Positions 1-16,200 of a stretch of DNA of 16,200 bases are shown piece by piece. Every line of letters starts with the position of its first letter. The first letter of the stretch is position 1. The notes under the pieces were generated by a model. That model made no database searches. It was not told the DNA's origin and saw only the letters and a list, made by a program, of their open reading frames with translations. Source of the stretch: Silvanigrellaceae bacterium. Lineage in GTDB: Bacteria; Bdellovibrionota_B; Oligoflexia; Silvanigrellales; Silvanigrellaceae. The stretch is taken from NCBI GenBank assembly GCA_049423385.1, contig JBMSQQ010000078.1, positions 1-16,200 of the forward strand, read 5' to 3'. A program made the translations under genes and the position numbers.

Positions 1-474
1 TCTTCCCAGGATGAACTGAACAAGTCGATGGGATTCGATGTGGGCGCCGAGCGCGATTTCAAGCTCACCGACGGTATCATGCTCTCCAGCAAGAGCTGGT
101 TTGGCTGGAGCAAGTCAACTTCCAATCTGAGCAAGAAAAAGAAAGAGACTACCGACATGGAACTCAGCTCAGCTTACGGTGTTGAAGTTGCCGCATCTTC
201 GTGGGCAACGTTGCGCGCAGGAGTTGCCGCTTCCATTTATGGAAATACAAAGGAAACTGCAACAGAGTATAATGATGCAAATCAAGCGGGAGCATCTGCT
301 GCAAATTCGAAAACCTCGACTTTTGTATTGCGCGGCATTTCCGCACCAAGAATGGGCGTAGGCTTCAAGTTCGGCAACTACACCATCGACGCATCTCTTG
401 CTCAAGATGGCACAGGCGACCTTGGCTTCTCCGACAAAGTTCTTGGAAAGGTTGAAGTCACCGGACAATTCTAA
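1..474 (+). CDS. Outer-membrane beta-barrel/porin-like protein, C-terminal part (5' truncated by the window edge)
   Basis: Frame 1 is open from base 1 (SSQDELNKSMGF...). Alternating amphipathic strands (YGVEVAASSWATLRAGV, MGVGFKFGNYTIDASL) and the C-terminus GKVEVTGQF ending in Phe fit a BAM beta-signal. Followed by a strong terminator. Confidence 0.75.
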   Translation, partial: SSQDELNKSMGFDVGAERDFKLTDGIMLSSKSWFGWSKSTSNLSKKKKETTDMELSSAYGVEVAASSWATLRAGVAASIYGNTKETATEYNDANQAGASAANSKTSTFVLRGISAPRMGVGFKFGNYTIDASLAQDGTGDLGFSDKVLGKVEVTGQF

Positions 475-2934: not shown

Positions 2935-3480
2935 TCAACGCTGGGGCGAGGTCAGTCTGCAAATATGACGCTTTGGTGAGTATTCCAGCTTGAGCAGCCA
3001 TTCCTTGGCGGCCTCTCCCCCCGCATATCCAGAGAGACGACCCGACTTTGCAACTACCCTGTGACAAGGGATGACGATGCAGAGGGGGTTCATTTTGTTT
3101 GCCGTACCGACAGCCCGCGCGGCTCCGGGATTGTTCAACATCTCCGCCTGCCTCGAATAGCTGAAGGTGGAGCCATAGGGGATTTGCATCAGGGAATTCC
3201 AGGCAGCTTTTTGAAATTCACTCCCTTGAAGCGAGGTTGGAAGTGAGAATTGCTTGCGCAGACCCAAGAAATATTCGTTCAGCTGCTTCTGGGTTTCAGT
3301 CAGGATGGCATTTGAGTTTTGCAGAACTTCACAGTCCCGCGGAATGATACGGGCAAGCACTGATTCGAAGTTTTGACCAAAGGCGACCATCCAAAGAAAA
3401 TTCTGATCCGCAAGCAGTTGCAAATCACCCACAGGACTCGGGAATAATGCTCGCCAGAATTGAGGTCTGTTCGAGGTCAC
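2935..3480 (-). CDS. ogt: Methylated-DNA--[protein]-cysteine S-methyltransferase
   Basis: SPVGDL, QLNEYFLGLRKQF, GSEFQKAAW, IPYGSTFSY, ARAVGTAN, active site IPCHRVV, GYAGG..K.WLL.LE. GTG at 3480 forms a GTGA overlap with the upstream stop; GTG at 3492 is an alternative. Confidence 0.95.
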   Translation of the reverse strand: MTSNRPQFWRALFPSPVGDLQLLADQNFLWMVAFGQNFESVLARIIPRDCEVLQNSNAILTETQKQLNEYFLGLRKQFSLPTSLQGSEFQKAAWNSLMQIPYGSTFSYSRQAEMLNNPGAARAVGTANKMNPLCIVIPCHRVVAKSGRLSGYAGGEAAKEWLLKLEYSPKRHICRLTSPQR

Positions 3481-4220
3481 AGTCGTTTGCACTTGCGAAG
3501 ATTCAGCCCCATTTCATACTTGAGGTCGAGTCCATCGACGGCAAATGAAATTGTGGCATTCTCGCGCAGCTTGTTCAGTCGCACGAAGATGTCCGAATGA
3601 TAATTGAACATGCGCGAGCGCTCGCGATTGCAAAAGCGTTTGTGCGGAGTACCGGGGCGTTCATCCTCGGGGACCCGGGCAACCGGTTGAGGCATGATCA
3701 GCAAGGGTTCATTGAAGATTTGGTTTGCGGGAAAAACCGCCGAGGCCGATGCCATGTTCAAATTCAAATCTCCGGGATTGCTTTTACCGTTGGGTTGGCG
3801 TCTGGCAAAATTGCTCATGAAATCGAGACGTGCCTGTATGCCCTGTGATTTGACGATTCCATAAGTGAGTGTTTGGTTTATTTCCTCGATGCGCTTTCCT
3901 TGCTCCACCTCAATCGGAAGAACAATCTGGCAGGGGCTGATGCTGACATTCGACTTTCGGGCATTGCGATACTCTTCGCCCAAGGCAGTGAAAACGAACG
4001 AAACCATGTCTCCGTTTGTGATGACGAACGCATTCTGGTTGGGGTCGCTCGAGCTGCCAAACCGACAGCCAATTCCTTTGGACGCCAACATCTCTGGATG
4101 CCAGATGGTTGATTGTGCGAGTGCAACTGGCACATGAATGGTGCACGCGATCCACAGGAGCGCAGCAGGTTTGCTGAGAAGAGACCGGTAGATGGGTTTC
4201 GCTCTGAATTTAAGACTCAT
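3477..4220 (-). CDS. Secreted DUF4360-like protein
   Basis: ATG at 4220 with GGAGAG upstream, signal peptide ending VALA-Q. Pattern GIGC..GS, GD.VSFVF, CQIVLPIEV.QG, YG, a third Cys and terminal DGLD...LNLRKC matches DUF4360 as recalled. Confidence 0.65.
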   Translation of the reverse strand: MSLKFRAKPIYRSLLSKPAALLWIACTIHVPVALAQSTIWHPEMLASKGIGCRFGSSSDPNQNAFVITNGDMVSFVFTALGEEYRNARKSNVSISPCQIVLPIEVEQGKRIEEINQTLTYGIVKSQGIQARLDFMSNFARRQPNGKSNPGDLNLNMASASAVFPANQIFNEPLLIMPQPVARVPEDERPGTPHKRFCNRERSRMFNYHSDIFVRLNKLRENATISFAVDGLDLKYEMGLNLRKCKRL

Positions 4221-4412: not shown

Positions 4413-4435
4413 GCTTGGTTTCGGAGGTTGGAACC

Positions 4436-5710
4436 ATGGCAAAAGATGTTGTTCAAAGGGCTGATTTTATTTCGGTTTCTTCGACGATGTCAGTGGTTTT
4501 CCTTGCCTCTGTTTTGATTCTCACATCGTCCTGCAAGCCAGCAGGGGAAAATCATTCCGGAGTTCAACACGGCGTCGGCAACACAAGAGTTTCCCAGCAG
4601 GATTTTTTACCTTGCAAAGAAATTCCAGCATCGCCGGGCTACAGCGAAACCGTCCGCTATCTCAACGATTTGAAGAATGCCATCGCACGCGCGAATCCCA
4701 GAACATTCGAGGGAGACCTCGCACCGGAAAATATTTGTATTGCGCTTGATACGTCCGATCGTGGAACGGGGGGAGGAGCGTTTGGCGACAGTGGACGCAT
4801 CTTGATTGAGCGCATCTCGGTAAAGACGGCAGAGAGTGATGCTCAATTGGGAGCAATACTTTGTCATGAGCTTGCGCACGTTTCGATGAACCACATGCGA
4901 ACAACCAAGAGTTCGCGAAATGGCGAATCATTGAATTTCACGCATGGCATTGGGCCTGATCGTTATTTTCAACAACTCCAACAATACCCCAGTTACAGAA
5001 GCGAAAAGCAGCAGCTTGATTCGCTCAACCGTAGACTTGCCGAGGTCGATCGCGAATATGCAACAACGCAAGCACAATTGAATCAACTGGCGGAAGCGGT
5101 ATTTACGAAAGACGTCATTGAGTCGGCCAAAAAAAGTGAAGCTGGAGCCAAGGCTGCCATTGAATATCTTTCCAGGTGCTCAACAGAAGCTTGTCAAAGA
5201 CTCAAGTCAGCGAACGACAAAATCAGTTCTCTGGGAGTTGAAAAAAACGAACTTCACCACAACAAAATTCCAGTTCAGGAGTATAGGGTCTATCAGGTTG
5301 CAGGAGCTCTATTGCCGCCCGATGTCATGTTGACCTGGTTGGAACGCGAGGCCGACGAGGTGGGGCTCGAACTGTGCGTGCGTGCAGGTTTCGACACCCG
5401 GAAGCTCCTGTCACATCGGGAAAGCCGTATTTTGGAATCTGGCTCGCAAAGGTACAACGGTTGTCGGATTGCCATTCAAAATGCGCTTTCCAATTTGCCG
5501 GCTGCAAAGGATCCTTACGGACGTGTGGTCGAGATACCCATTTCGGATGCCCAATTTCCTGGTCCGCATCCTGAAGAATGCTGGCGATTGTTCAACATTG
5601 AGCGCGAGCTTCTGTTGCACGCCAGAGACTTTCAACCCTTTAAAAAGAACCTTGCGACGGTTGTGCCCGGAGGGCTGGAGCGTGCAAAGAGTGAGTTGCA
5701 GGGTAAATGA
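4436..5710 (+). CDS. M48-family zinc metallopeptidase, probable lipoprotein, with helical insertion
   Basis: GAFGDSGRILI, SDAQLGAILCHELAH (HExxH, 4865-4879), EREADEVGLELCVRAGFD (third ligand) and HP....R motif. Hydrophobic segment ending LTSSC. GGAGG at 4423-4427 supports ATG 4436. Confidence 0.88.
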   Translation: MAKDVVQRADFISVSSTMSVVFLASVLILTSSCKPAGENHSGVQHGVGNTRVSQQDFLPCKEIPASPGYSETVRYLNDLKNAIARANPRTFEGDLAPENICIALDTSDRGTGGGAFGDSGRILIERISVKTAESDAQLGAILCHELAHVSMNHMRTTKSSRNGESLNFTHGIGPDRYFQQLQQYPSYRSEKQQLDSLNRRLAEVDREYATTQAQLNQLAEAVFTKDVIESAKKSEAGAKAAIEYLSRCSTEACQRLKSANDKISSLGVEKNELHHNKIPVQEYRVYQVAGALLPPDVMLTWLEREADEVGLELCVRAGFDTRKLLSHRESRILESGSQRYNGCRIAIQNALSNLPAAKDPYGRVVEIPISDAQFPGPHPEECWRLFNIERELLLHARDFQPFKKNLATVVPGGLERAKSELQGK

Positions 5711-5720
5711 AATTCGATTT

Positions 5721-6896
5721 TCAGCAGGCATCGGCCAAAGTTTTCATTTCCATGATGTGAGCTTGAGCATTTGTATGTTCGGGATTCAATTTCAGGCACT
5801 CTTGAAATGCGGAGATGGCTTCGATGTTGCGGCCGTTTTTCCTGTTGGCCAAGCCGAGATTGTAATAGACGCTTGATCTCAAGTTGTTATCCTTCAAATG
5901 TATAAGCGCCGCTTTGTAAAGCTTCAAGGCATCTTCGAATCTGTTCTGGTTCAGTGCATGAATGCCTGAGTTGTTGAGGAAGGACGCTATCTCATCTTCG
6001 CTGAGTGGTTCCGAGAATATTTTGATCGACTGTTCTATTTCTTCTTCGCTCAGAGCGCATTGTGAAAGACTTTCGCGGGGATCAATTGCTGTGGGATGCA
6101 CGGCGAGCGCTGCCATGTATTTTCCCTTGGCCTCTTGCTGCTTTCCCTGGTGCATCAGCACGTCGCCCATCATCGTCAAGCGATCGGGATTGTGTGGGCA
6201 GATTTTGTTCGCGGCATCCAGGATGCGCAGGGCAGTGTCCTTTTCACCCATCTTCAGCTCTGCTCGTGCCAAGAGGTTCATGGCACGAACGTTGTGAGGT
6301 TCGAGTTGCACGATGCGCAAAGCGGTGTCGCGTGCATCTGCATATTTTCCCTGTCGGAAGCAGTAGTTTCCATATTCAAGTTTTACGATGAGATCGTGCG
6401 GATAAGCGGAGTAGGCTTCCTCGATGGCCTTGTCAAAATCACGTGCCACACCCTCACTCCGAATCATACGAAGATTGTGAACAAACGATTGGCTTGCCGA
6501 ACGGTTGTCGTCTTCTTTTTTGATTTCAAGAATCCTGAGTCCGAGGTTGCTCAATGCCGATGCCAGCTGGAGAGCCTTGCGCAATCCGCAGTCGGAAACC
6601 AATGACAAGACAGAGACAGTGAGTTCGGGAGCCAGGACAATCCGTTTGGTGTTCGCGGCAACTTCGTGTCGAACCAGGCGCTGGTGAAAGAGATTGATTT
6701 GCGAGGGCTCAAAGTTTCTCAGGTTGTGTACGAACATGAGTGGCTTGCTGTTGCCAATCAGCGACATGCACTCTGCCGGAGAAGTTGCAGGAATCACAAT
6801 AAAGCCCGCACTTTCGGAAGACTGCTTTAGTTTCGTCATGTCCTGCGAAACACTCAAAAGCACAATCGACTGTTTTCCAATTGCCGGGTTTTGCAT
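5721..6896 (-). CDS. Tetratricopeptide-repeat protein with N-terminal pseudo-receiver domain
   Basis: ATG at 6896 with AAGGAG upstream. Several TPRs (YGNYCFRQGKYADA, MGDVLMHQGKQQEA, YYNLGLANRKNGRNIEAISAFQECLKLNP). N-terminus has REC-like spacing (AGFIVIPATSPAECMSLIGNSKPLMFVHNL). Confidence 0.82.
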   Translation of the reverse strand: MQNPAIGKQSIVLLSVSQDMTKLKQSSESAGFIVIPATSPAECMSLIGNSKPLMFVHNLRNFEPSQINLFHQRLVRHEVAANTKRIVLAPELTVSVLSLVSDCGLRKALQLASALSNLGLRILEIKKEDDNRSASQSFVHNLRMIRSEGVARDFDKAIEEAYSAYPHDLIVKLEYGNYCFRQGKYADARDTALRIVQLEPHNVRAMNLLARAELKMGEKDTALRILDAANKICPHNPDRLTMMGDVLMHQGKQQEAKGKYMAALAVHPTAIDPRESLSQCALSEEEIEQSIKIFSEPLSEDEIASFLNNSGIHALNQNRFEDALKLYKAALIHLKDNNLRSSVYYNLGLANRKNGRNIEAISAFQECLKLNPEHTNAQAHIMEMKTLADAC

Positions 6897-6917
6897 TCTC
6901 GCGGTCTCCTTTAATGG

Positions 6918-6944
6918 TTTTCGGCGGTTTGTCCGCGTAATTGA
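6918..6944 (-). promoter_or_regulatory. Sigma28 (FliA)-like promoter of the pseudo-receiver/TPR gene
   Basis: Minus strand TCAA (6944-6941)-N15-GCCGAAAA (6925-6918), just upstream of the Shine-Dalgarno. Confidence 0.6.
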
Positions 6945-7041
6945 TGGTGTTTTTCGGATTCGTGAATAATCCAATGGTTTCGGTGTTTTGTTGGATAGTC
7001 TCGGGGCTCGCAAAAGCAATTGCAGGAAATTTCGGGAGAAA

Positions 7042-7135: not shown

Positions 7136-8641
7136 ATGCGGAACTTTGGCCACCTTTATTTTCTGTTTATTTTGATTGGCTGCGGAGCAACCAGCGCCGC
7201 GAGGAAAAGTGCGCCATGTTCAGCAAAGTCTTTAAACTCATCCTCAGGTTCCGGTGCTTCGCCCCTGAACCTGGTGCAGTTTTCAGCTGAAGAAGAAAAA
7301 CGACTGGGGTTGGGTTACCTGGACATCACCACAGACGTTGGCACCGGGCCTCAAGGTAGGCGATGCACGATGAGCGTTGCTCCCATTCCTGGACAAGCCG
7401 ATTTTGTGAGAGTGACAACTGCCGCACACTGCGGTTGGCCTGCAGAATCCGATGAATTTGCGAAATCGAAATACTCACTCCACATCTACTACAATGGGGG
7501 ATATTTCCCTGCTGTGGCGCAAATGAAGGGGCAAAATGACTGGCATGTGTTTGCCAAGAAGGTGTCACCTTATGTAGGCGTTTTGCCCGTGGAATTGACG
7601 AGAAAGTTCGTGCAGGCATCGACTGACGTCAACAAGACGAACTGTGTCAATTTGTCCCAGAACATCAGAACGACCACCGATCCCTCGTTCGACATCCTGT
7701 GTCTTTCTGATGGTGAGGAAAGACCTCTCGTTGCAAAAATCGAGGTGGATTCAAAATACCGCGAGATCCTCGACAGGATTCTCGAGGTGGTGTCAAACCG
7801 AAAAAAGTCGATTCTGGACAATTTGCCACCGCGGGAAAAATTGATTTTCTCCACCGATGTGCGCACACCGTATGAAAGAGTGCCGGGATTCCTTCAAGAC
7901 CTGGGCTTTCAGATGAATCCGTTTTTTTGTGCTGCTCCCGTCGCAGAATTACCTCCGGGACGCTCCGGTCTTCCGATGAGTCAAGCACTCTGCGGAGTCC
8001 GGGACGCGATGATTGCAATGTTCAAGGCAGATCTTCCGCAACTGTGGCCTGCAGTTCAGGTTGTGGTGGACAAACCCTTTGCATCAAATGAAGAAATGAG
8101 GACATTCCACCGCGACAATATCGCCTGCACCTTCAAGTCGCTGGATGAAATTGATCCTGCAAACAGCAACTTTCTGCGCACCAATTGCGATGAAGACATG
8201 ATCGGTTGGTATATTTGGAAGGAATGGGTGAGGAACGGGCTCACGAATCTGGCGACGTTGCAGGTGAACGACAAATCGAAGGTTGGCTTTACCCCTGAAA
8301 CCTTTTTTTCCTTGTTCACCAACAGTGTTGGAAGCCGGGAAGCTGCCGAGTCAAACGATACCTCCAAAGCCAGGCCGAGGCTTTTTTCCATCAGCCCCGT
8401 CAATGGTTCTTTCACGCTGGACAATGCGATGGCTTTTCTTTTGAATCCTGTGCAATCGGACATCTGGGTCAGCAAAAAGGACAGCGGTTCACTGTTTTCC
8501 ATTTTTGGAGTGATTCCGGTCGGAGTTCTTTCCAGCTACAACGGCGAACCCACCTCGGGCGGCGCGAGTATTTTGCCCCTTCCGGTCGTCAATGACGGTG
8601 AAGAGAGCAAGACTCCACTGACGGGCTGCTCGTCTGGATGA
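7136..8641 (+). CDS. Lipoprotein, trypsin-like (clan PA) serine protease with large internal insertion, 501 aa
   Basis: Lipobox LIGC. RRCT...VTTAAHC His motif (7418-7432) and KKDSGSLF...PVGVLS Ser motif (DSGS at 8480-8491). Confidence 0.72.
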   Translation: MRNFGHLYFLFILIGCGATSAARKSAPCSAKSLNSSSGSGASPLNLVQFSAEEEKRLGLGYLDITTDVGTGPQGRRCTMSVAPIPGQADFVRVTTAAHCGWPAESDEFAKSKYSLHIYYNGGYFPAVAQMKGQNDWHVFAKKVSPYVGVLPVELTRKFVQASTDVNKTNCVNLSQNIRTTTDPSFDILCLSDGEERPLVAKIEVDSKYREILDRILEVVSNRKKSILDNLPPREKLIFSTDVRTPYERVPGFLQDLGFQMNPFFCAAPVAELPPGRSGLPMSQALCGVRDAMIAMFKADLPQLWPAVQVVVDKPFASNEEMRTFHRDNIACTFKSLDEIDPANSNFLRTNCDEDMIGWYIWKEWVRNGLTNLATLQVNDKSKVGFTPETFFSLFTNSVGSREAAESNDTSKARPRLFSISPVNGSFTLDNAMAFLLNPVQSDIWVSKKDSGSLFSIFGVIPVGVLSSYNGEPTSGGASILPLPVVNDGEESKTPLTGCSSG

Positions 8642-8741: not shown

Positions 8742-10520
8742 CTAATCGATGGGGATGATGTCTGACACCTTCACTTTCACGTCTTCTTTCATTTCTGCTG
8801 CCAGAGTATCCAACTTGATGTATCCGACTCCGAACTCATTGTTTGAAAAATCAAGTCCGCTGAAGACAAGTTCACCTTCGCTGCTCTTTGCAAGACTGAA
8901 GATCTCGAATTTGAATTTTATTGTCTTGTCGTTCGTGGAGGTGCCATCAATCCATTTTTTGAGCGAGTAGTTTGAGTTCTTTGTTTGCAGATAGAAGAGT
9001 TCAGTTCCAATTTTCCAAATCTTTTTCACCTGGACGTCACTCGGGAAAGGGACTGGAGTCAGCACGCCGGTGGCGGACAGTCGCACAATTGGAGTGCTGT
9101 TTTCCGAGCCTCGGGTGGTGGCCATGTTCCTTGCCTGCCAAATCGCTTCTTGGGTGCTCGTGTCGGCAGTGGCTGCTGCGCACGAAGCAGTGAAACTTTG
9201 GGTGCCTGAGTTTGCCGAGCAAATTGTCTCGTCGTCGCTATTGACGATGCTTCCGCCGGCGCCTCCGGATGTATATTCACAGACGATCTTGCCCGGGTTG
9301 GCATAACCAAAGTTTTGCCATGCGCTGCCCGTCGAATTGATGAACAAAAAGTCACCATTTTCTTCGGGGATGATGACACCCTGGTAGCCCAAGCTTTGTA
9401 TTCCGGTGCCGACGTTCACCGTTTTGCAGGACTCTTTCCATTTGTCCCAGTTTCCTTGTGAAGAGGTCCAGGTATAGCCATTCATTTTGCCCTTGGTGAC
9501 AACTTCCGAGACCTGCGAAAGCAATCGGTTCTCGTCGTTGGGATCACCGGCAGTGGGATCGAATTTCAGGAGGTCGTTGTTCATGCCGATGGCTGTTGGT
9601 CCTGTTGAACCATTGGAAGGTTTCGGGCCAGCGTACAGGACACGATCATTGGCGTCGTTGTTGAGCGGCAAGAACAGGATGGGACCAAATTGGCCTTCGG
9701 CGATTTGCTGAACGCCGCCCGTTGGTTCCACATACCGGAAATAGCTTGCTGCAGTGCCTCCTTGAGGTTGCCCGACGTAGTACAGGCCTCCCCGGGGTGT
9801 TGCGAAGAACTTGGTGACGTAGATGTTTGAATTCACCATGACTTTTGAGCTGCCAGTGGAAGGATCAATTCTGACCAGTTCCGGACCACTTGCGCCCGAT
9901 GTTTTGGAGTAGACCCTCGCATAGATGCGACCCTGGCCGTCGAATTGCAGTGTCGGTTCGGCCCCTTGAACGCCCCAGTACTGAGGTTGAAAGTACTTGT
10001 CCTTCAATCCCACAATGCAGCTTATTCCCGATGGGACAGCGTTGCTTGAAGTCAATTCTGCCATGCTGCCGCTTGCCTTGAACAATTGGCAATCACCCGT
10101 CTTGTCTGCAGAGTAGAGTGGATTTGGAAAGAAGAGATACACTTCGCCTGTTGGAGACTTGTAAATTTCAGGCGGTGAGGTTTGGGCCGAGATGTAGTTT
10201 TTTGTGGGTTCGTCTGTGCTCCCGACGACGTCCTCGAATTTTTTCTCAGCGGTCACCTTGGCGATTGATTTTTTTTCTTGAGATGTTGGTGATGGCGAGT
10301 CTGCGTAAAAACCTCCCGCATCTTCAAGCAGCAGATTGGACTGGGAGCCTCCCATTTTTGCAAGTCCCACCGCGCCGCGAAGATCGATTTGGATCTTGCT
10401 GGAATCCATTGCAGAGCCCGTGTTTCCAGTTCCACCATCGCTTTTTCCGGAAGATTTCTTCCCACAGGAGAGTGTTGCAAATGCGATGAACCACAACGGG
10501 GAAAGAACCCAGAACTGCAT
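8742..10520 (-). CDS. Large lipoprotein, probably beta-propeller-like, 592 aa
   Basis: ATG at 10520 with GGAGGT upstream. Lipobox TLSC followed by a G/S/K linker. Repeated blade-like units (IYKSPTGEVYL, LQFDGQGRIYA, FFATPRGGLYY, LAKSSEGELVF). Confidence 0.78.
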   Translation of the reverse strand: MQFWVLSPLWFIAFATLSCGKKSSGKSDGGTGNTGSAMDSSKIQIDLRGAVGLAKMGGSQSNLLLEDAGGFYADSPSPTSQEKKSIAKVTAEKKFEDVVGSTDEPTKNYISAQTSPPEIYKSPTGEVYLFFPNPLYSADKTGDCQLFKASGSMAELTSSNAVPSGISCIVGLKDKYFQPQYWGVQGAEPTLQFDGQGRIYARVYSKTSGASGPELVRIDPSTGSSKVMVNSNIYVTKFFATPRGGLYYVGQPQGGTAASYFRYVEPTGGVQQIAEGQFGPILFLPLNNDANDRVLYAGPKPSNGSTGPTAIGMNNDLLKFDPTAGDPNDENRLLSQVSEVVTKGKMNGYTWTSSQGNWDKWKESCKTVNVGTGIQSLGYQGVIIPEENGDFLFINSTGSAWQNFGYANPGKIVCEYTSGGAGGSIVNSDDETICSANSGTQSFTASCAAATADTSTQEAIWQARNMATTRGSENSTPIVRLSATGVLTPVPFPSDVQVKKIWKIGTELFYLQTKNSNYSLKKWIDGTSTNDKTIKFKFEIFSLAKSSEGELVFSGLDFSNNEFGVGYIKLDTLAAEMKEDVKVKVSDIIPID

Positions 10521-10547
10521 AAACACCTCCAACCTGAGCACGGGAGA

Positions 10548-10639: not shown

Positions 10640-12103
10640 TCACCGCTTCAAATAACAACCACCGGGACTACCAATCACGCTCCCGTCTTTGTAGATCAAC
10701 TCGCCGCGCAGGAAGGTTTGTTTCACTTGCGCCGTGAGTTCCATTCCCGTGAAGGGTGAATAGCCTTGTGCAGAGGGTGAGTCTTTGGGATCAATCGTCC
10801 AGGTCTTGTTGGGGTCGACGAGAACAACATCGGCATCGAAACCAAGCTTGATGTTGCCCTTGGTGGAAAGACCATAACGTTCGGCAGGAGCGCTGCACAC
10901 GAGCTCGGCCATGCGGTTGAGGCTCAAGCCGCGCTTGCGACCTTCTGTGAGCAGTCCACACAGCAAATATTCAGTGCCGCCAAATCCACTCTTGGCCATG
11001 AACACGTCGTTGGGATTTTGCTTGTCGGTTTTGAGTTCTTCCGAGCAGCAGGCGTGGTCGGAGCAGATCCAGTCGATGTGACCGTTCTTCACTGCTTCCC
11101 ACAAGTATTCGACATCTTCGCGTGGGCGAATCGGTGGATTCACTTTGGCATAAATGCCGTTGGGAGATTCGGTGTCGAGCAACAGGTGGCCAATGGTCAC
11201 TTCGCGACGGAAATTGATGTTGGGAAAGACGACCGACATCTTGAGAGCCGCATCCACCGCTTTGCGCGAGGTGAGGTGAAGAAGGTTGATGTTCACACAG
11301 TCTGTTTCGTTGGCAAGATACGAGGCGATGAAGATGGCCAAGCCTTCGGAGTGAGGTGGCCGCGACGCACTATAGGCCGGCAAGCCCGAGAGCTTGCCTT
11401 CGTTCATCACCATTTTTGTATAGGCGGTCATGATTTCGGCTGTTTCGCAATGCAGGCTCAGCGACAGCGCATTGCGTTTGTCGGGACGAGCATCCGAGAG
11501 ATTTTTGAGTCCACGCATGACGGCTTCGAAGTGGGCAATGTCGTAGCGCTCGTCCTGGCCAATCATCAGGAATTCGTGTTGTTTGTGCGAACAACCATGC
11601 AGGCCGTGGCTGCCATAGAACATGAAGATCTTGAACGACGAGACACCAAAGCGTTCCAGCAGAAGCGGCATTTCGTCGATATGCGAGGCCGACATTGGCG
11701 CCACGTGATAAGCGTAGTCGACGTGGTAGTTGCCCTCGGAAAGTGAAAGCACTTCGGGCATGAAGTCGGCGTAGGGGCCGCCCTTGTTCAAATAATATTG
11801 TCCCGTGCGAATATAATTGAGGCTGCTCGTCACGCCACCCATCGCTGCGGCGCGGCTTTCGTTGCGCGCGTCTTTGTCGAGGGGTGCATAAATACCCGTG
11901 TGCATGTGGGCATCCACGAGCCCAGGGAAGGCGAGAAGGCCACGTGCGTCCGTCACATTTTTTGCGAGAGTGGCGTCGATTTCGGATTCGAGTGCAACAA
12001 AGCGTCCATCGCGGATCGCAATGTCGAGTTGTTCCGGAGCGGGTTGGCCCGGGCGGACAACCAGCGCGCCCTTGATGAGGTGATCATATTGAAAAGTTGT
12101 CAT
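10640..12103 (-). CDS. Cyclic amidohydrolase (allantoinase/dihydropyrimidinase/dihydroorotase family), 487 aa
   Basis: PGLVDAHMH, AAMGGVT, SFKIFMFY (carboxylated Lys position), LHCE, LHLTS, KVNPPIR, SDHA, G.I..G.DAD.V.VD. ATG at 12103 forms an ATGA overlap with the upstream stop. Confidence 0.92.
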   Translation of the reverse strand: MTTFQYDHLIKGALVVRPGQPAPEQLDIAIRDGRFVALESEIDATLAKNVTDARGLLAFPGLVDAHMHTGIYAPLDKDARNESRAAAMGGVTSSLNYIRTGQYYLNKGGPYADFMPEVLSLSEGNYHVDYAYHVAPMSASHIDEMPLLLERFGVSSFKIFMFYGSHGLHGCSHKQHEFLMIGQDERYDIAHFEAVMRGLKNLSDARPDKRNALSLSLHCETAEIMTAYTKMVMNEGKLSGLPAYSASRPPHSEGLAIFIASYLANETDCVNINLLHLTSRKAVDAALKMSVVFPNINFRREVTIGHLLLDTESPNGIYAKVNPPIRPREDVEYLWEAVKNGHIDWICSDHACCSEELKTDKQNPNDVFMAKSGFGGTEYLLCGLLTEGRKRGLSLNRMAELVCSAPAERYGLSTKGNIKLGFDADVVLVDPNKTWTIDPKDSPSAQGYSPFTGMELTAQVKQTFLRGELIYKDGSVIGSPGGCYLKR

Positions 12104-13326
12104 GCCTGTGTTCTCCCGCTGCCGGTGGATGATGAAGTTCCGCATCCGATGATGTTGTCTGTTTTCAATTTTTCGATTTCTGATTGTGAGTATCCGAGTG
12201 AGAGAAGAATCTCTGCGCTGTGTTCGCCGATAGAAGGCGGTTGGTGTGCGATTCCAAGCGTCTGGCCATCCCATTCGAGCGGTAAAGCCGGGAGGCCCAC
12301 AGACGCGTTCTTGATGTTCACATTCAACAAACGACCCGGCTGTTGAAGTTGAGGATCGTTGAAAAGATCTTCGGGTCTTGCCACAGCCGCGAATGGAATG
12401 TTGTGTGTTTCGCATCTTGAGGCAATGGCATCGCGGTCATGTTCTGCGAGCATTTTTTCCACTGCCGGCAGAAACCAGGATTTTTCCGCAATGCGGCCAT
12501 TGTTGGTCGCCAGGCGCGCATCGGCAAGCCATTCCGGTTGGCCAAAGGCTTCGCAAAAGCGTTGCCAGTGACGATCGCTGATGATGCCAATGAAAATTGG
12601 CAAGCCATCTTTCGATTGAAATATTTGGTAAATCGACCATGCGCTTTGGCGCTCGGGCATGGGTGGAATGGGACCATCCGATTGTGCAGCATAGGCCATG
12701 TGTTGGCCCATGAGAAACGCGGTCGTTTCAAACAGCGATGAACGAACGAGTTTTCCGCTGCCTGTGACGTGACGTTCGAAAAGTGCAGCGAGAATGCCCA
12801 TGGCACCAAACATGCCACCCGTGATGTCGACCACCGAAGTTCCGGCCCGCAGCGGTTGGTTGCGAGGACCGGTCATAAAGGCGAGGCCGCCCATCATCTG
12901 CACAACTTCATCCATGGCATGGCGTTGTTCATAGGGGCCAGAGAGGAATCCCTTGAGCGAGCAATAAACGATGCGGGGATTAATTTCCTTCAATGTAGAA
13001 TAAGACAGCCCTAGCCTGTCGGCTGTTCCCGGACCAAAGTTTTCGATGAACACGTCCGATTGCTGGGCGAGTTTGCGGATGAGGGCAAGTCCTTGTTCGC
13101 TTTTAAGGTCAACCGCCAAGCTGCGTTTGTTGCGGTTGTAGAAGGGAAAATAGCCCATCCCGAAACCCTTGAGGTTGCGCGTGGGATCGCCATCAAGAGG
13201 TTCAACGTGAATTACATCTGCACCCATGTCGGCGAGCACAAGGCTCGCACACGGGCCCATCACGGCGTGGGTGAGGTCAATCACCTTGATTCCGGAAAGA
13301 GGCTTTGGAGCTGTGGAATTATTCAA
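12100..13326 (-). CDS. CaiB/BaiF class III CoA-transferase
   Basis: PLSGIKVIDLT, GP.A...LADMGADVI.VE, NRNKRSLAVDLK, DVFIENF.PG, catalytic-position Asp in VVDITGG, PP.IGEHS.EIL. TTG at 13326 has AAGGAGG 5 nt upstream; GTG at 13341 is an alternative. Confidence 0.95.
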   Translation of the reverse strand: MNNSTAPKPLSGIKVIDLTHAVMGPCASLVLADMGADVIHVEPLDGDPTRNLKGFGMGYFPFYNRNKRSLAVDLKSEQGLALIRKLAQQSDVFIENFGPGTADRLGLSYSTLKEINPRIVYCSLKGFLSGPYEQRHAMDEVVQMMGGLAFMTGPRNQPLRAGTSVVDITGGMFGAMGILAALFERHVTGSGKLVRSSLFETTAFLMGQHMAYAAQSDGPIPPMPERQSAWSIYQIFQSKDGLPIFIGIISDRHWQRFCEAFGQPEWLADARLATNNGRIAEKSWFLPAVEKMLAEHDRDAIASRCETHNIPFAAVARPEDLFNDPQLQQPGRLLNVNIKNASVGLPALPLEWDGQTLGIAHQPPSIGEHSAEILLSLGYSQSEIEKLKTDNIIGCGTSSSTGSGRTQA

Positions 13327-13840
13327 GCGAGCCTCCTTCACGCAAAAATGGAACCAATCCTCCGGCAGAAAGGATCTTCAGCATCACCGGTGGAAGTGGC
13401 GTGCATTGATACGTGATTTTTTGCGTTTGGTTGTAAACCCGTCCAGCCTGCAAATCGAAGTTGAGAACATCACCTTGCTGGATATTGTGGTCGGGAATTT
13501 CGATCACCGGCAAACCCACATTGACTGCGTTGCGATAAAAAATGCGGGCAAATGATTTTGCAATCACCGCACCAACACCTGCAGCCTTCAAAGCCAGAGG
13601 AGCTTGTTCGCGCGAAGAACCGCAGCCAAAGTGCGCACCAGCAACAATCAGGTCTCCAGCTTTCGCGCGTGTGCGAAAATCCGGATCGAGATCCTCCAGA
13701 ACGTGCGCAGCAAGTTCCGACAGGTCGAGAGTCTTGGTGTATTTTCCGGGGATGATGCGATCGGTGTCGATGGTGTCGCCATAGACGTGCGCGCGGCCGG
13801 TGTTTTCCCTTGTGCCATTGGTTGTATTGCCGTTGATCAT
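13319..13840 (-). CDS. leuD: LeuD/HacB/DmdB-family hydro-lyase small subunit (short, type 2)
   Basis: GDTIDTDRIIPGKY, AGAHFGCGSSREQA, AKSFARIFYRNAVNVGLP, IL.AGGLV. ATGA overlap with the large-subunit stop. The symbol denotes family; a role in leucine synthesis is doubtful. Confidence 0.92.
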   Translation of the reverse strand: MINGNTTNGTRENTGRAHVYGDTIDTDRIIPGKYTKTLDLSELAAHVLEDLDPDFRTRAKAGDLIVAGAHFGCGSSREQAPLALKAAGVGAVIAKSFARIFYRNAVNVGLPVIEIPDHNIQQGDVLNFDLQAGRVYNQTQKITYQCTPLPPVMLKILSAGGLVPFLREGGSLE

Positions 13841-15051
13841 GCGAGTGGCTCCACAATCGCTCCGGCGAGAGCGGCGCTGGCCACGGCTGCAGGTGAGGCC
13901 AAGAAAACTTGTGCATTGCGGTTGCCCATGCGGCCGGCGAAGTTGCGGTTGCCGCTGGAAATCACCACGTCGTTGTTGCCGGGAACGCCCATGTGTGTGC
14001 CCACGCAGGGTCCACAGCCTGTGGCCAGCAGGGTGGCACCAGCTTCAATGAGTGTCGCCAGGGTGCCATCGCGGGTGGCTTGCAGCAGCGTCTGTCGCGA
14101 TGCCGGCGAAATGTAGAAACGCACGCCGGGTGCAATTTTCTTTCCGTTCAGAATTCGGGCTGCAACCTGCAAATCCTCAATTCGGGCGTTGGTGCACGTA
14201 CCCAAAAAGGCGTAGCTGATTTTGGTGCCGGCGGCTTCCAGGAGCGGGCGCGCATTTGCAGGAGAACCTGGAAATGCAATTTGTGGCTCCAGCGCTGAAA
14301 CATCAATCTCGATACGCTTCGCATATTTCGCATTCGCATCGGCAGAGACGGTGTTGGATGCTTCGACGAACCCCACCTTGCCACCCAACTCGGCGACCAT
14401 GTTTGCCAGTGTGATGCGCTCGGACAATGGCAATGCCTCGACGTATGACCCGGCAAATTCGATGGCGTGATAATTGGCATCCTGCATGCCCCACTGTGCC
14501 AGCAAATAAAGGATGACGTCTTTGGCGTAGACACCGTCGCGCGGTGTGCCGCGAAGTTCAATGCGCATGGAATGTGGAACTTTGATCCACGTCGAACCGG
14601 TCTTCCAAATCGCCGCAGCATCAGTCGAGCCAATCCCTGCAGCGAAAGCCCCCCAGGCGCCATAGGTTGTGGTGTGCGAATCTGCACCCATGACAACAGA
14701 GCCTGTGGGCGCGAGGCCGTGTTCAAGCACCACGTGATGAATGATTCCTTCGCCACTCTCGAACAGTCTGCAGCCATGTTGTTTGGCAAAGTTGCGCATC
14801 AGCGAGTGCAAATTGGCGATGCGTTCGTTGGGTGCAGGAGCAGCGTGATCGATGACAAGCACCACGCGTTCGGGAGTGGCAAGACGTGTTCCGCCCATGT
14901 CTTCAAAAGCCTTGATGGCCAATGGAGCCGTGGTGTCGCTGGCCGTGCACAGGTCGACGGGGCATACGACAATTTCGCCTGCCACAACCGTGCGTCCGAC
15001 TTTCGCCGAGAGAACTTTTTCAGCGATGGTTTGCCGATGCGACGAGCTCAT
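13837..15051 (-). CDS. leuC: LeuC/HacA/DmdA-family [4Fe-4S] hydro-lyase large subunit (short, type 2), 404 aa
   Basis: TIAEKVL, DH, GIIH, GADSHT, GIGSTD, three cluster cysteines (GTCTNAR, GCGPCVG), NRNFAGRMG, LASPA. ATGA overlap with the lyase stop. The symbol denotes family only. Confidence 0.94.
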   Translation of the reverse strand: MSSSHRQTIAEKVLSAKVGRTVVAGEIVVCPVDLCTASDTTAPLAIKAFEDMGGTRLATPERVVLVIDHAAPAPNERIANLHSLMRNFAKQHGCRLFESGEGIIHHVVLEHGLAPTGSVVMGADSHTTTYGAWGAFAAGIGSTDAAAIWKTGSTWIKVPHSMRIELRGTPRDGVYAKDVILYLLAQWGMQDANYHAIEFAGSYVEALPLSERITLANMVAELGGKVGFVEASNTVSADANAKYAKRIEIDVSALEPQIAFPGSPANARPLLEAAGTKISYAFLGTCTNARIEDLQVAARILNGKKIAPGVRFYISPASRQTLLQATRDGTLATLIEAGATLLATGCGPCVGTHMGVPGNNDVVISSGNRNFAGRMGNRNAQVFLASPAAVASAALAGAIVEPLA

Positions 15052-15950
15052 CCGCGTGCCTTGCCGGGGAGTTCTCGCCCAAGAAATTCAGAGAGCTCTT
15101 TTCTTATCTGAACAGTTTTTTCGACTGAATAACCGGTGGCAAAACCAAGGTCATGCAACAGCGATGCAACATCTTCGGTGGCAATGTTGCCGGTGGCACC
15201 TGGAATAAAAGGGCAGCCACCGAGTCCACCGAACGCCGTGTCGAAATGCCGAACGCCAAGCTCCAGCGCGGTGTGCAGATTCAGCATGGCCCGACCAAAT
15301 GTGTCATGCAGGTGAAGAACCAGCGGCCGTTCACCTGTCATCGACAAACATTCGCCGACGATTTCGCTGACCAGATGCGGATGCGCCATGCCGGTTGAGT
15401 CGGCGAGGCTGAAAGTGTCTGGACTGAGTTCAACCAATTTCGCGAAAAGGCCAATCACTTGTGTCGTTGGAATGCGGCCTTCGTAACCGCAGCCGAATGC
15501 GCATTGCAATCCGGCACGGACCTTGATTCCTGCAGCGCGCGCGAGACTGGTCATTTGTTCAAGCTCAGCGAATGCTTCGGCCTGTGTGCGTTTCGTGTTG
15601 CGCAGCGAATGTGTCTCGCTGGCCGACATCGAGATGTCGATGGCATCCACACCTGCCGCTATGGCACGTTCAACCCCTTTGGTGTTGAGGGCCAGTGCGC
15701 TGAATTTGACCTCAGAAAAAGAGTTGTGTGATTTGCGGAATGCCAACATGCCAGCGCAGACGTCCTCGGCATCGGCCATCTGGGGGACGATTTTGTTGTT
15801 CACGAAAGATGTGAGCTGGATTTCTTTCGCCCCTGCGGCCACCGCAGCTTGAATCCAACGGAGTTTTTCATGGGTTGGAATGAACTTGCTTTCACCCTGA
15901 AACCCATCACGAGGACCCACCTCAATAAAAACAACTTTATCAACATTCAT
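15048..15950 (-). CDS. Hydroxymethylglutaryl-CoA lyase-family (DRE-TIM) enzyme, 300 aa
   Basis: EVGPRDGFQ, SFV....VPQMAD, SASETHS.RN, AFGCGYEG, LADSTG, LHLHDTFG, GGLGGCPFIPGATGNIATED. ATG at 15950 gives the typical family length. Confidence 0.95.
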   Translation of the reverse strand: MNVDKVVFIEVGPRDGFQGESKFIPTHEKLRWIQAAVAAGAKEIQLTSFVNNKIVPQMADAEDVCAGMLAFRKSHNSFSEVKFSALALNTKGVERAIAAGVDAIDISMSASETHSLRNTKRTQAEAFAELEQMTSLARAAGIKVRAGLQCAFGCGYEGRIPTTQVIGLFAKLVELSPDTFSLADSTGMAHPHLVSEIVGECLSMTGERPLVLHLHDTFGRAMLNLHTALELGVRHFDTAFGGLGGCPFIPGATGNIATEDVASLLHDLGFATGYSVEKTVQIRKELSEFLGRELPGKARG

Positions 15951-16200
15951 AAGACCAAGTTGTCCTTCGGTACGACCCGGGGCCGGTGGTTCAAGGGGGC
16001 GATTTTCGGCTGACAAGGGAGGGTCTAAACCACATTTAACCATAGGCAATCAAGGAGTGACGGCTTTGGTGATGCTGGCTAAAGATAAAACAATGCAATA
16101 ATTCGTTTTTTCTTGTGAATTTCTTCTGTCGGGGCTGCACCTGAGCTCGCGCTCCGCTACCCCTCGCACTGACCCTGGGCATTCCCAAGACACGACAATC

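Follow-up and report, generated by a model that had tools for sequence, protein, structure and literature searches.

In the nicotinate fermentation of Eubacterium barkeri, dimethylmaleate hydratase (DmdAB), an iron–sulfur enzyme of the LeuCD type, acts on a 2,3-disubstituted maleate and is followed by retro-aldol cleavage through 2,3-dimethylmalate lyase (Dml), a member of the PrpB/ICL family. Chloroflexus aurantiacus pairs a class III CoA-transferase, succinyl-CoA:(R)-citramalate CoA-transferase, with an (R)-citramalyl-CoA lyase of the HMG-CoA lyase family, which splits a 3-hydroxy-3-methyl dicarboxylyl-CoA into acyl-CoA and pyruvate, and a Blastobacter sp. degrades cyclic imides with an imidase and a half-amidase, after which maleate is converted to D-malate. 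The characterized bacterial imidase BpIH is reported to be a metal-independent protein of the PuuE/polysaccharide-deacetylase type (PMC11424739) and thus has a fold other than that of the amidohydrolase described below.

Here, we analyse a window of 16,200 nucleotides, which is a whole contig, with a five-gene operon whose proposed logic resembles these systems in parts. As judged by family, it would share with DmdAB–Dml the order of hydration and retro-aldol cleavage, and its small hydratase subunit passes the NCBI ‘LeuD/DmdB family’ model; however, cleavage in the window would proceed through a CoA ester and an HMG-CoA lyase-family enzyme, ring opening would fall to an enzyme of the allantoinase/hydantoinase type, and genes for the B12 mutase, methylitaconate isomerase and enamidase are absent. 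As the window holds neither an ICL-family lyase nor a B12-enzyme gene, we rejected its assignment to the DmdAB–Dml branch; lyases of the ICL/PrpB type, the family of Dml, are confined to CoA-independent variants of the operon in other organisms. The transferase and lyase families are those of the Chloroflexus pair, whereas that pair works in an autotrophic cycle and is not known to have a hydratase or an amidohydrolase as partner. Ring opening, ammonia loss and maleate hydration are common to the Blastobacter route and the logic proposed here, but the window has no half-amidase gene and CoA-dependent cleavage is not known as part of the Blastobacter pathway. Our literature search found no publication describing the five-gene operon.

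An operon of five overlapping genes

Positions 10640–15950 hold five co-directional minus-strand genes, of which consecutive ones overlap. In order of transcription these encode an HMG-CoA-lyase-family (DRE-TIM) lyase (15048–15950, 300 amino acids), a LeuC-like large subunit of an Fe–S hydro-lyase of the archaeal IPMI/homoaconitase type (13837–15051, 404 amino acids), a LeuD/DmdB-family small subunit with the recognition loop YTKT (13319–13840, 173 amino acids), a class III CoA-transferase (12100–13326, about 408 amino acids from a TTG at 13326) and a cyclic amidohydrolase whose subfamily is highly conserved and unnamed (10640–12103, 487 amino acids). The junction letters read ATGA on the minus strand exactly at 15048–15051, where the LeuC start meets the lyase stop, at 13837–13840 between LeuD and LeuC, and at 12100–12103 between amidohydrolase and CoA-transferase; the amidohydrolase is translationally coupled to the CoA-transferase. 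At the remaining junction, the CoA-transferase start overlaps the LeuD stop in TTGAATAA at 13319–13326, and as AAGGAGG lies 6 nt ahead of the TTG, translation probably begins there, with an overlap of 8 nt; starting instead from a GTG at 13341 would give 413 amino acids. The open reading frame listing, the junction letters and the profile matches agree with the preliminary description, which had reported five overlapping genes of these families joined by three ATGA and one 8-nt overlap, and the listing has, as also claimed there, neither leuA nor leuB in the unit.

The lyase ATG at 15950 agrees with the N-termini of its homologues, and a longer start at TTG 16049 is unlikely. Because the window is the entire contig, the sequence ahead of the lyase gene breaks off after a putative leader or promoter region on the minus strand (15951–16200), which is A+T-rich and lacks open reading frames, and in which a simple promoter scan returned no match.

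Lyase, hydro-lyase and CoA-transferase families

The lyase matches PF00682 with 125.6 bits, exceeds the cut-off of the HMG-CoA lyase subfamily model NF004283 (284 against 246 bits) and reaches 206.9 bits with the solved HMG-CoA lyase 1ydo, with EVGPRDG, LHxHDT and GGLGGCP aligned. With its RDG, HxH and GGCP motifs intact, it can be assigned to the HMG-CoA lyase subfamily of DRE-TIM metallolyases.

Both LeuCD subunits pass subfamily models, NF001614 (aconitase/IPMI large subunit; 489.9 bits, cut-off 385) and TIGR02086 (479.2, cut-off 410.15) for the large one and TIGR02087 (199.8, cut-off 108.95) for the small one, which predicts an Fe–S hydro-lyase of the IPMI–homoaconitase family. They stay under the equivalog cut-offs for LeuC (TIGR02083, 397.1 against 610.65), HacA (402 against 550), LeuD (TIGR02084, 189.1 against 245.85) and HacB (198 against 230). 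The translation contains the stretches CTN and GCGPC, whose cysteines we take to be the Fe–S cluster ligands. When aligned with solved chains, the LeuD loop YTKT lines up with YLRT in homoaconitase 2pkp and with YLVY in the IPM/citramalate isomerase 3vba, and it is unchanged in all nine window-type loci where it can be read; its basic residue presumably takes part in substrate recognition, as in the homoaconitase literature. The small subunit is just as close to the methanogen homoaconitase HacAB (154 bits with 2pkp), and the two loops have a basic third residue and a threonine in fourth place in common, but the window pair scores below the HacA and HacB cut-offs, its context is catabolic and its genome has no homocitrate synthase.

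A 3-isopropylmalate isomerase proper was considered and rejected on the low equivalog scores, the loop (YTKT, not YLVY) and the genome, which at 90.6% completeness gave no match to LeuA_dimer, so that leuA was not found. The preliminary description had left room for this LeuCD being the sole isopropylmalate isomerase of the genome; with no LeuA_dimer match and only two HMGL-family genes in the genome, which are the two lyase paralogues and both lie in LeuCD clusters, a role in leucine synthesis is highly unlikely.

The CoA-transferase matches PF02515 (CoA_transf_3) over positions 1–366 of 366 with 373 bits and falls below the cut-offs of all seven NCBIfam specificity models, including formyl-CoA, succinate–glutarate, succinyl-CoA:mesaconate and CaiB.

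An unnamed amidohydrolase subfamily

The amidohydrolase has an Amidohydro_1/3 domain and its top NCBIfam match is allantoinase, with 214–215 bits against cut-offs of 357.85 and 631. The models for ErtD (191.7 bits, cut-off 650), D-hydantoinase/dihydropyrimidinase (180.3, cut-off 393.25) and dihydroorotase (pyrC_multi, 177.1, cut-off 279.05) also match; as every equivalog cut-off is missed, we rejected allantoinase AllB, dihydropyrimidinase, dihydroorotase and ErtD as its identity.

In an alignment of 23 amidohydrolase sequences, H66, H68, K158, H218, H276 and D349 are invariant, and the same positions align with allantoinase and hydantoinase chains. We take these to be the binuclear metal ligands (HxH, carbamylated lysine, two histidines and aspartate), a set by which the enzyme is placed in the binuclear cyclic amidohydrolase group of allantoinase, hydantoinase and dihydroorotase. 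The AlphaFold model (pLDDT 90.8) is predicted to adopt the TIM-barrel plus beta-sandwich fold of allantoinase and hydantoinase, with allantoinase 8hfd as the best Foldseek match (E 2.3e-44, TMq 0.84) and D-hydantoinase 1k1d at TMq 0.82. Fold (TM 0.82–0.84) and ligands are thus common to allantoinase, D-hydantoinase/dihydropyrimidinase and dihydroorotase, and with D-hydantoinase it also has a Lys-x-Phe-Met-x-Tyr motif in common (FKIFMFY opposite FKVFMAY of 1nfg), whereas solved members of this group are only 25–28% identical to it and its gene context differs.

Identity across phyla is 62–68%, with a mean column identity of 69% over Bacteroidota, Pseudomonadota, Actinomycetota and Acidobacteriota, and the best 120 clusters (64–93% identity) carry generic names only. 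These values point to a single orthologous, unnamed subfamily within the allantoinase/hydantoinase group.

Modular gene neighbourhoods

We tallied the partners within 8 kb of the amidohydrolase at 98 loci with orthologues at 55% identity or more, of which 37 are well flanked (5 kb or more on the upstream side and 3 kb or more on the downstream side); six more loci at 25–30% identity were omitted as distant paralogues. The LeuCD pair is near the amidohydrolase in 43 of the 98, and all four partners (LeuC, LeuD, CoA-transferase and HMGL lyase) are present in 15, or 11 of the well-flanked 37. The five-gene arrangement is beyond chance, and the combination that the preliminary description had drawn from a single stretch recurs elsewhere.

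At about 27 loci, a CoA-independent set (a flavoprotein and/or a PrpB-like lyase, with or without LeuCD) replaces transferase and lyase; LeuCD, PrpB/ICL-like lyase and flavoprotein occur together in 10 of the 98 and partial versions in 17 more. The tally suggests two alternative C–C lyase solutions after the same amidohydrolase–hydratase core, and as the flavoprotein is near-constant in the CoA-independent variant and absent from the window, the two may start from different oxidation states. Three LeuCD lineages (window type, C4/bacterial type and ‘B’ type) with 30–39% mutual identity accompany the amidohydrolase. Neighbourhood types are mixed among one another in its tree, where at least four changes on well-supported branches are needed for the window type; by this topology, the partner modules were exchanged repeatedly. 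Of 61 related genomes, 7 carry the amidohydrolase.

At 40 of the 98 loci (11 of the 37 well flanked), no partner family lies within 8 kb. A GlcD-like FAD_binding_4 oxidase precedes the amidohydrolase at 9 to 10 marine loci, and at seven loci the amidohydrolase faces a gene of the Asp/Arg-hydroxylase family; the hydratase–lyase route is therefore not its only context. Metagenome contigs from open water often carry the family, as do sites next to TonB receptors, and a neighbour of the red-chlorophyll-catabolite-reductase family occurs once in the 98. In most complete operons there is no amidase that could cleave an imide's second N-acyl bond. Amidase-type genes (CN_hydrolase and isochorismatase families) do occur beside some related loci and on another contig of the same genome, C4, where a paralogous four-gene set without amidohydrolase forms a cluster with an aldehyde dehydrogenase, a CN-hydrolase, an isochorismatase-type amidase, a decarboxylase-like protein and a cupin.

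Proposed pathway and alternatives

Taken together, the five genes probably form one catabolic operon, an accessory trait gained by acquisition, for ring opening, hydration, CoA transfer and C–C cleavage; we infer all chemical steps and their order from the enzyme families. The binuclear-metal cyclic amidohydrolase would open a small cyclic imide or lactam carrying a dicarboxylate skeleton, and loss of the nitrogen, whether spontaneous, by the same enzyme or by an amidase encoded elsewhere, would leave a substituted maleate. The LeuCD-type iron–sulfur enzyme would hydrate this to an alkyl- or carboxyalkyl-malate, the class III CoA-transferase would load CoA onto one of its carboxyls, and the HMG-CoA-lyase-family enzyme would split the 3-hydroxy-3-substituted acyl-CoA into acyl-CoA and a 2-oxo acid. 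The modular partner pattern supports this skeleton, in which a ring is opened, a substituted malate formed by hydration and a C–C bond cleaved. What is most likely is that a small nitrogen ring is opened and the branched acid broken down to central metabolites in an aquatic host, by a route found in many bacteria.

The most likely substrate class, proposed with low confidence, would be 2,3-disubstituted maleimides and among these foremost hematinic acid, which bears a carboxyethyl group and would yield pyruvate and glutaryl-CoA; the homoaconitase-like LeuD loop slightly favours such a carboxyalkyl-maleimide. The preliminary description had outlined the same succession of amidohydrolase, LeuCD hydration, CoA activation and HMGL cleavage, which the comparative loci support; this support does not extend to its imide ring, its tetrapyrrole source, for which the only direct hint is the red-chlorophyll-catabolite-reductase-family neighbour at one locus in 98, or its view that lability explains the missing amidase. 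Doubtful, if conceivable, is the wider idea that the amidohydrolase is a maleimide hydrolase and the operons a bacterial sink for the monopyrrole fragments of light- or peroxide-oxidized chlorophyll, heme and bilins (hematinic acid, methyl-ethyl-maleimide and methyl-vinyl-maleimide). Opening the ring would then detoxify a thiol-reactive imide, and either LeuCD, CoA-transferase and HMGL lyase or LeuCD, flavoprotein and PrpB-like lyase would convert each fragment to pyruvate and glutaryl-, butyryl- or related acyl-CoA, or free acids; reduction of the vinyl side chain could fall to the flavoprotein, and the C4 cluster would trim pyrrolinones with formyl or acetamide groups so that they feed the same route.

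Other rings are improbable. An oxindole-type lactam from oxidized auxin (2-oxindole-3-acetate or dioxindole-3-acetate) would open to (aminophenyl)succinate or (aminophenyl)malate, to be desaturated or hydrated and cleaved, for example to isatinate and acetyl-CoA. This chemistry agrees with the flavoprotein–LeuCD–lyase order of the CoA-independent variant and, as the nitrogen stays on the substituent, requires no amidase. The cyclase family includes isatin hydrolase, and at locus L105 a cyclase-family and a thiolase-like gene adjoin the amidohydrolase, but this is one locus in 98. Were the lactam hydroxylated, there would be no need for LeuCD, which is nevertheless constant in the window-type operon; the LeuD loop has a lysine where, to judge from the alignment, an aryl group would want a hydrophobic pocket, and auxin is less obvious in open water and beside TonB receptors. 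The published iad enzymes belong to other families, namely acyl-CoA synthetase, thiolase and alcohol dehydrogenase (PMC12633357). We think it quite unlikely, too, that the ring is a six-membered imide or otherwise tricarboxylate-derived, such as the glutarimide carboxylate proposed for isonicotinate/citrazinate catabolism, with an aconitase/isocitrate-lyase-like route downstream. Many CoA-independent operons do contain TctC tricarboxylate-receptor genes, the better NCBIfam matches of their flavoprotein include tricarballylate dehydrogenase TcuA (110–150 bits, below the 369 cut-off), their lyase is PrpB-like (284–287 bits, below 354), and hydantoinase-type enzymes accept glutarimides (PMC11424739). 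The combination of CoA-transferase and HMGL-type lyase seen in the window is, however, not the one by which citrate or isocitrate is cleaved, and no molybdenum hydroxylase genes of the pyridine carboxylate type were seen beside the loci. We also know of no natural source of glutarimide-carboxylate-type imides, which counts against such a ring.

That the amidohydrolase is an ordinary nitrogen-salvage allantoinase, dihydroorotase or hydantoinase riding along with a citraconate/maleate route is highly unlikely. On paper, the other four genes suffice to convert citraconate to pyruvate plus acetyl-CoA, through hydration to (R)-citramalate (or D-malate from maleate), CoA transfer and cleavage, the Chloroflexus pair and LeuCD-type maleate/citraconate hydratases are analogues, and C4 has its four-gene set without the enzyme. 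Against this, the amidohydrolase misses all equivalog cut-offs, is coupled to the transferase and keeps company with LeuCD across three LeuCD lineages, two lyase types and several phyla, and further genes of purine or pyrimidine breakdown are absent nearby. We give hardly any credence to a reading as leftovers of amino-acid metabolism, in which LeuCD would serve the synthesis of leucine and HMG-CoA lyase its breakdown. Named after the NCBI subfamily models, the proteins would indeed be of the 3-isopropylmalate dehydratase family and a hydroxymethylglutaryl-CoA lyase, but LeuC and LeuD both stay under their equivalog cut-offs, the genome has no LeuA_dimer match and no HMGL-family gene outside its two LeuCD clusters, and the complete set persists as a conserved accessory cluster in 7 of the 61 relatives.

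A coupled operon with a weakly matched amidohydrolase

Contig C78, which the window covers entirely (16.2 kb), belongs to a genome bin of 3.47 Mb in 183 contigs with a completeness of 90.6%. On its minus strand, at 10640–15950, we found five genes encoding an HMGL-like lyase (300 aa; NF004283, 284 bits, cut-off 246), a LeuC-like large subunit (404 aa; NF001614, 489.9 bits, cut-off 385), a 'LeuD/DmdB family' small subunit (173 aa; TIGR02087, 199.8 bits, cut-off 108.95), a class III CoA-transferase (PF02515, 373 bits) and a 487-aa amidohydrolase whose NCBIfam matches all lie well below their cut-offs, the best being allantoinase (214–215 bits), ErtD (192), dihydropyrimidinase (180) and dihydroorotase (177). 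The junction letters agree exactly with the overlaps of the preliminary description: ATGA start/stop overlaps at 15048–15051, 13837–13840 and 12100–12103, and TTGAATAA at 13319–13326, where AAGGAGG stands 6 nt ahead of a TTG start, with a GTG at 13341 as the alternative. Simple scans of the window gave numbers close to those in shuffled sequences, both for promoters (4 versus 2.8) and for terminators (9 versus 7.5). The DNA sequencing runs that contain half or more of the words belong to two studies with the labels marine and freshwater metagenome, and no RNA runs were among those listed.

A protein search with the amidohydrolase, which scored the 8000 candidates that share the most words with it, returned at least 6718 matches at E ≤ 1e-30. 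The best 120 clusters of matches (64–93% identity, 481–538 aa) are named only 'dihydroorotase family protein', 'allantoinase' or 'hydantoinase', and the ESM Atlas gave generic names only. Across 23 aligned members from several phyla, mean column identity is 69%, and HxH, Lys158, His218, His276 and Asp349 are invariant in all 23. For the AlphaFold model, which is of high confidence (pLDDT 90.8, pTM 0.91), the nearest solved fold is E. coli allantoinase (27% identity, TM 0.84), followed by D-hydantoinases/dihydropyrimidinases (25%, TM about 0.82); FKIFMFY of the window's protein stands opposite FKVFMAY of D-hydantoinase 1nfg, whereas allantoinases are without the Tyr. Cyclic imides are known substrates of hydantoinase-type enzymes such as mammalian imidase. 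According to the available part of one report, a glutarimide is turned over by an engineered D-hydantoinase, and the characterised bacterial imidase BpIH, which we considered as a counterpart, is a PuuE-type protein, in contrast to the allantoinase/hydantoinase-like fold of the window's enzyme (PMC11424739). Two loci, L040:5626–9000 and L049:1651–5100, carry the amidohydrolase in two tandem copies each.

Two sets of partners recur beside the amidohydrolase

We surveyed 18 genome loci and 80 metagenome loci whose amidohydrolase is 55–98% identical to the window's, leaving out six at 25–30%, and mapped 27 reference families, taken from Pfam-annotated neighbours, within 8 kb of the amidohydrolase by tblastn. 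A LeuCD pair in any combination is present in 43 of the 98 loci. The set of the window (LeuCD, CoA-transferase and HMGL lyase; CoA-dependent) accompanies the amidohydrolase in 15, so that the co-occurrence of all five families proposed in the preliminary description is found elsewhere. A second, CoA-independent set, in which LeuCD is combined with a PrpB/ICL-like lyase and a FAD_binding_2 flavoprotein, is complete in 10/98 and partial in 17/98, and 40/98 have no partner family within 8 kb, many of these being short contigs. Of the 37 well-flanked loci (≥5 kb on the upstream and ≥3 kb on the downstream side), the window's set is present in 11, the full second set in 6, other combinations in 9 and no partner family in 11. 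A GntR regulator and a branched-chain-type ABC transporter usually stand ahead of the second set, often also a TctC receptor. Its PrpB-like lyase scores 284–287 bits against a cut-off of 354, and the closest families to its flavoprotein are flavocytochrome-c fumarate reductases, ketosteroid dehydrogenases, tricarballylate dehydrogenase and vinylphenol reductase, below the cut-off for all four.

On a tree of 96 amidohydrolases, from which three loci with <440 aligned residues were omitted, the neighbourhood labels that we assigned are clustered yet interleaved: the window's type requires at least 4 changes on well-supported branches, and 23 changes in all versus 56 in shuffles. Because of these neighbourhood sets and their interleaving, we infer that one orthologous, putative ring-opener has repeatedly acquired a LeuCD-type hydratase as partner, together with one or the other of two types of C–C lyase. 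This recurrence is the strongest support for the pathway first suggested for the operon, in which ring opening would be followed by hydration to a substituted malate, CoA activation and C–C cleavage. DmdAB and Dml are the hydratase and lyase of nicotinate fermentation, and the amidohydrolase-linked operons parallel their hydratase-then-lyase logic.

Other contexts also occur. In 9 to 10 loci on open-water metagenome contigs (L033:7393–10458, L034, L036, L037, L039, L041, L043, L045, L047 and L050) the amidohydrolase lies directly behind a GlcD-like FAD_binding_4 oxidase; it has an alpha/beta hydrolase to one side and a TonB receptor, MFS carrier and short-chain dehydrogenase (SDR) to the other, and LeuCD is not nearby. 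In seven loci it faces an Asp/Arg-hydroxylase-family gene, often close to CN_hydrolase, aldehyde dehydrogenase, DUF3598, DUF4437 cupin or DUF1838 genes, and in actinomycete loci the place of these neighbours is taken by MmgE/PrpD and Asp/Glu-racemase-family genes. Small glyoxalase/VOC-family genes lie in or near several CoA-dependent operons (L010:3677–4084, L016, L031, L072 and L079); the L010 protein (135 aa, Glyoxalase_4 match) is of the same size and family as methylmalonyl-CoA epimerases, and an epimerisation next to the thioester would fit.

A paralogous module and the LeuCD partners

The same genome holds a second module of CoA-transferase, HMGL lyase, LeuC and LeuD on contig C4 (L030:3365–15142). 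The gene order there is CN_hydrolase, aldehyde dehydrogenase, DUF3598_N, an arylmalonate-decarboxylase/Asp-Glu-racemase-like (Amdase-like) protein, an isochorismatase-family hydrolase, class III CoA-transferase, HMGL lyase, bacterial-type LeuC, LeuD, a DUF4437 cupin and an MFS carrier, with DUF1838 on the opposite strand. Its core proteins are 30–36% identical to the window's. Its accessory families adjoin the amidohydrolase in other organisms as well, and related compounds are therefore the probable substrates of both clusters. Isochorismatase and nitrilase superfamilies include amide hydrolases, for example maleamate amidase NicF and omega-amidases, and the isochorismatase-family and CN_hydrolase proteins of C4 are thus candidate amidases; the lack of an amidase remarked on for the operon may not extend to the genome.

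The view that the operon has no leucine role is borne out: canonical leuA was sought in the 90.6%-complete genome and LeuA_dimer found no match, an absence that is not proven because 9% is unassembled. HMGL-family genes number just two in the genome, one being the window's lyase and the other its C4 paralogue; together with the missing leuA match, this led us to reject a leucine biosynthesis or HMG-CoA reading. Besides the window's, there are two aconitase-family genes, an 884-aa open frame on C138 and the LeuC on C4, and both LeuC and LeuD of the window score below the equivalog cut-offs for LeuC/LeuD and HacA/HacB. The overall picture is one of catabolic hydratases. Second Iso_dh genes lie on contig C42.

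The LeuCD partners of the amidohydrolase fall into three lineages with 30–39% identity between them: the archaeal type of the window (11 of the 15 loci with the window's set), a bacterial type resembling the C4 paralogue (the other 4) and the type of the second set. A small-subunit loop is a specificity determinant in IPMI and homoaconitase, as given in the available part of PMC7308503. In HMMER alignments to solved chains, this loop of the window's LeuD, YTKT, stands opposite YLRT of 2pkp, the homoaconitase subunit from M. jannaschii, and YLVY of 3vba, a subunit of IPM/citramalate isomerase. In YLRT, it is the Arg that binds homoaconitate at its distal carboxylate. YTKT is identical in 9/9 window-type loci with a readable loop, and the second-set LeuD has Y-M-K at that position.

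Candidate substrates

Because of the basic loop residue and the TctC receptors, a carboxyalkyl substituent on the substrate is mildly favoured. Hematinic acid, on which the preliminary description had speculated, would be in line with this. Ring-opened, it is 3-methyl-cis-homoaconitate, whose hydration and cleavage would yield pyruvate and glutaryl-CoA, or glutarate in place of the latter in the CoA-independent variant. A red-chlorophyll-catabolite-reductase-family gene (79 bits versus a cut-off of 24.9) does occur at L080:3426–15158, where CN_hydrolase, aldehyde dehydrogenase, an Asp/Arg-hydroxylase-family gene, DUF3598_N and a DUF4437 cupin also surround the amidohydrolase; at 1/98 loci it is too rare to serve as a clue to the substrate.

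Oxidised auxin lactams are a rival substrate class. Neighbours of an auxin-like kind (one cyclase-family gene and one thiolase-like gene) are likewise confined to 1/98 loci, too rare to be informative, and the published iad auxin-degradation enzymes belong to other families as far as the available part of their description goes (PMC12633357). Another rival substrate is a six-membered tricarboxylate imide. As for described pathways, the enzymes of the itaconate type (Ict/Ich/Ccl) come from other families in the available part of PMC13491972, and the homarine operon is unrelated, its products being N-methylglutamate and glutamate and its paper naming no amidohydrolase, dehydratase or lyase.

If the proposed route is true, a single unnamed amidohydrolase family, with members in thousands that among the best matches listed bear no annotation beyond 'dihydroorotase family protein' or 'allantoinase', would mark a widespread, previously unassigned route by which a small nitrogen heterocycle is broken down. 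Its modular design, the same ring-opener and hydratase type with a CoA-dependent or CoA-independent lyase, provides a testable frame for the substrate search. Tetrapyrrole-derived maleimides as substrates would explain the fate of carbon and nitrogen from degraded chlorophyll and heme in water and soil; even without that link, misleading annotations would be corrected, the genes being neither leucine-synthesis nor purine/pyrimidine genes.

Distribution and flanking genes

A full-text literature search, with subscription journals mostly outside it and an older biochemical report possible, returned no description of this gene set; its parts are known families and the pathway logic has known cousins. 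The amidohydrolase is present in 7 of 61 related genomes, the window's own included (6/13 in the genus, 1/20 in the rest of the family and 0/28 in other families of the class), and, judging by this patchy presence, is an accessory trait. In a related genus, the copy at L120 (G019:C100:17445–18890; 61% identity) has one in-frame TAA, which may point to a pseudogene or to an error in the assembly.

Downstream of the operon by 100 nt, a 599-aa ORF without family match (8742–10541, minus strand) has a lipoprotein-like N-terminus (…ATLSCGKK…); it was not found beside the operon in loci L006–L029. A 501-aa ORF at 7136–8641 (plus strand), without Pfam or NCBIfam match, has at least 4 near-full-length paralogues at 25–31% identity on C30, C47, C7 and C17, and several shorter C-terminal matches in the genome. 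Further away are an M48-peptidase-like gene adjoining a TPR lipoprotein gene (4415–7019), a fragment at 1–474 (plus strand) that weakly matches a PopA-family porin-like protein (47.8 bits versus a cut-off of 150) and an Ogt methyltransferase gene (2935–3492, minus strand), which in the relative L009 is also downstream of the operon.
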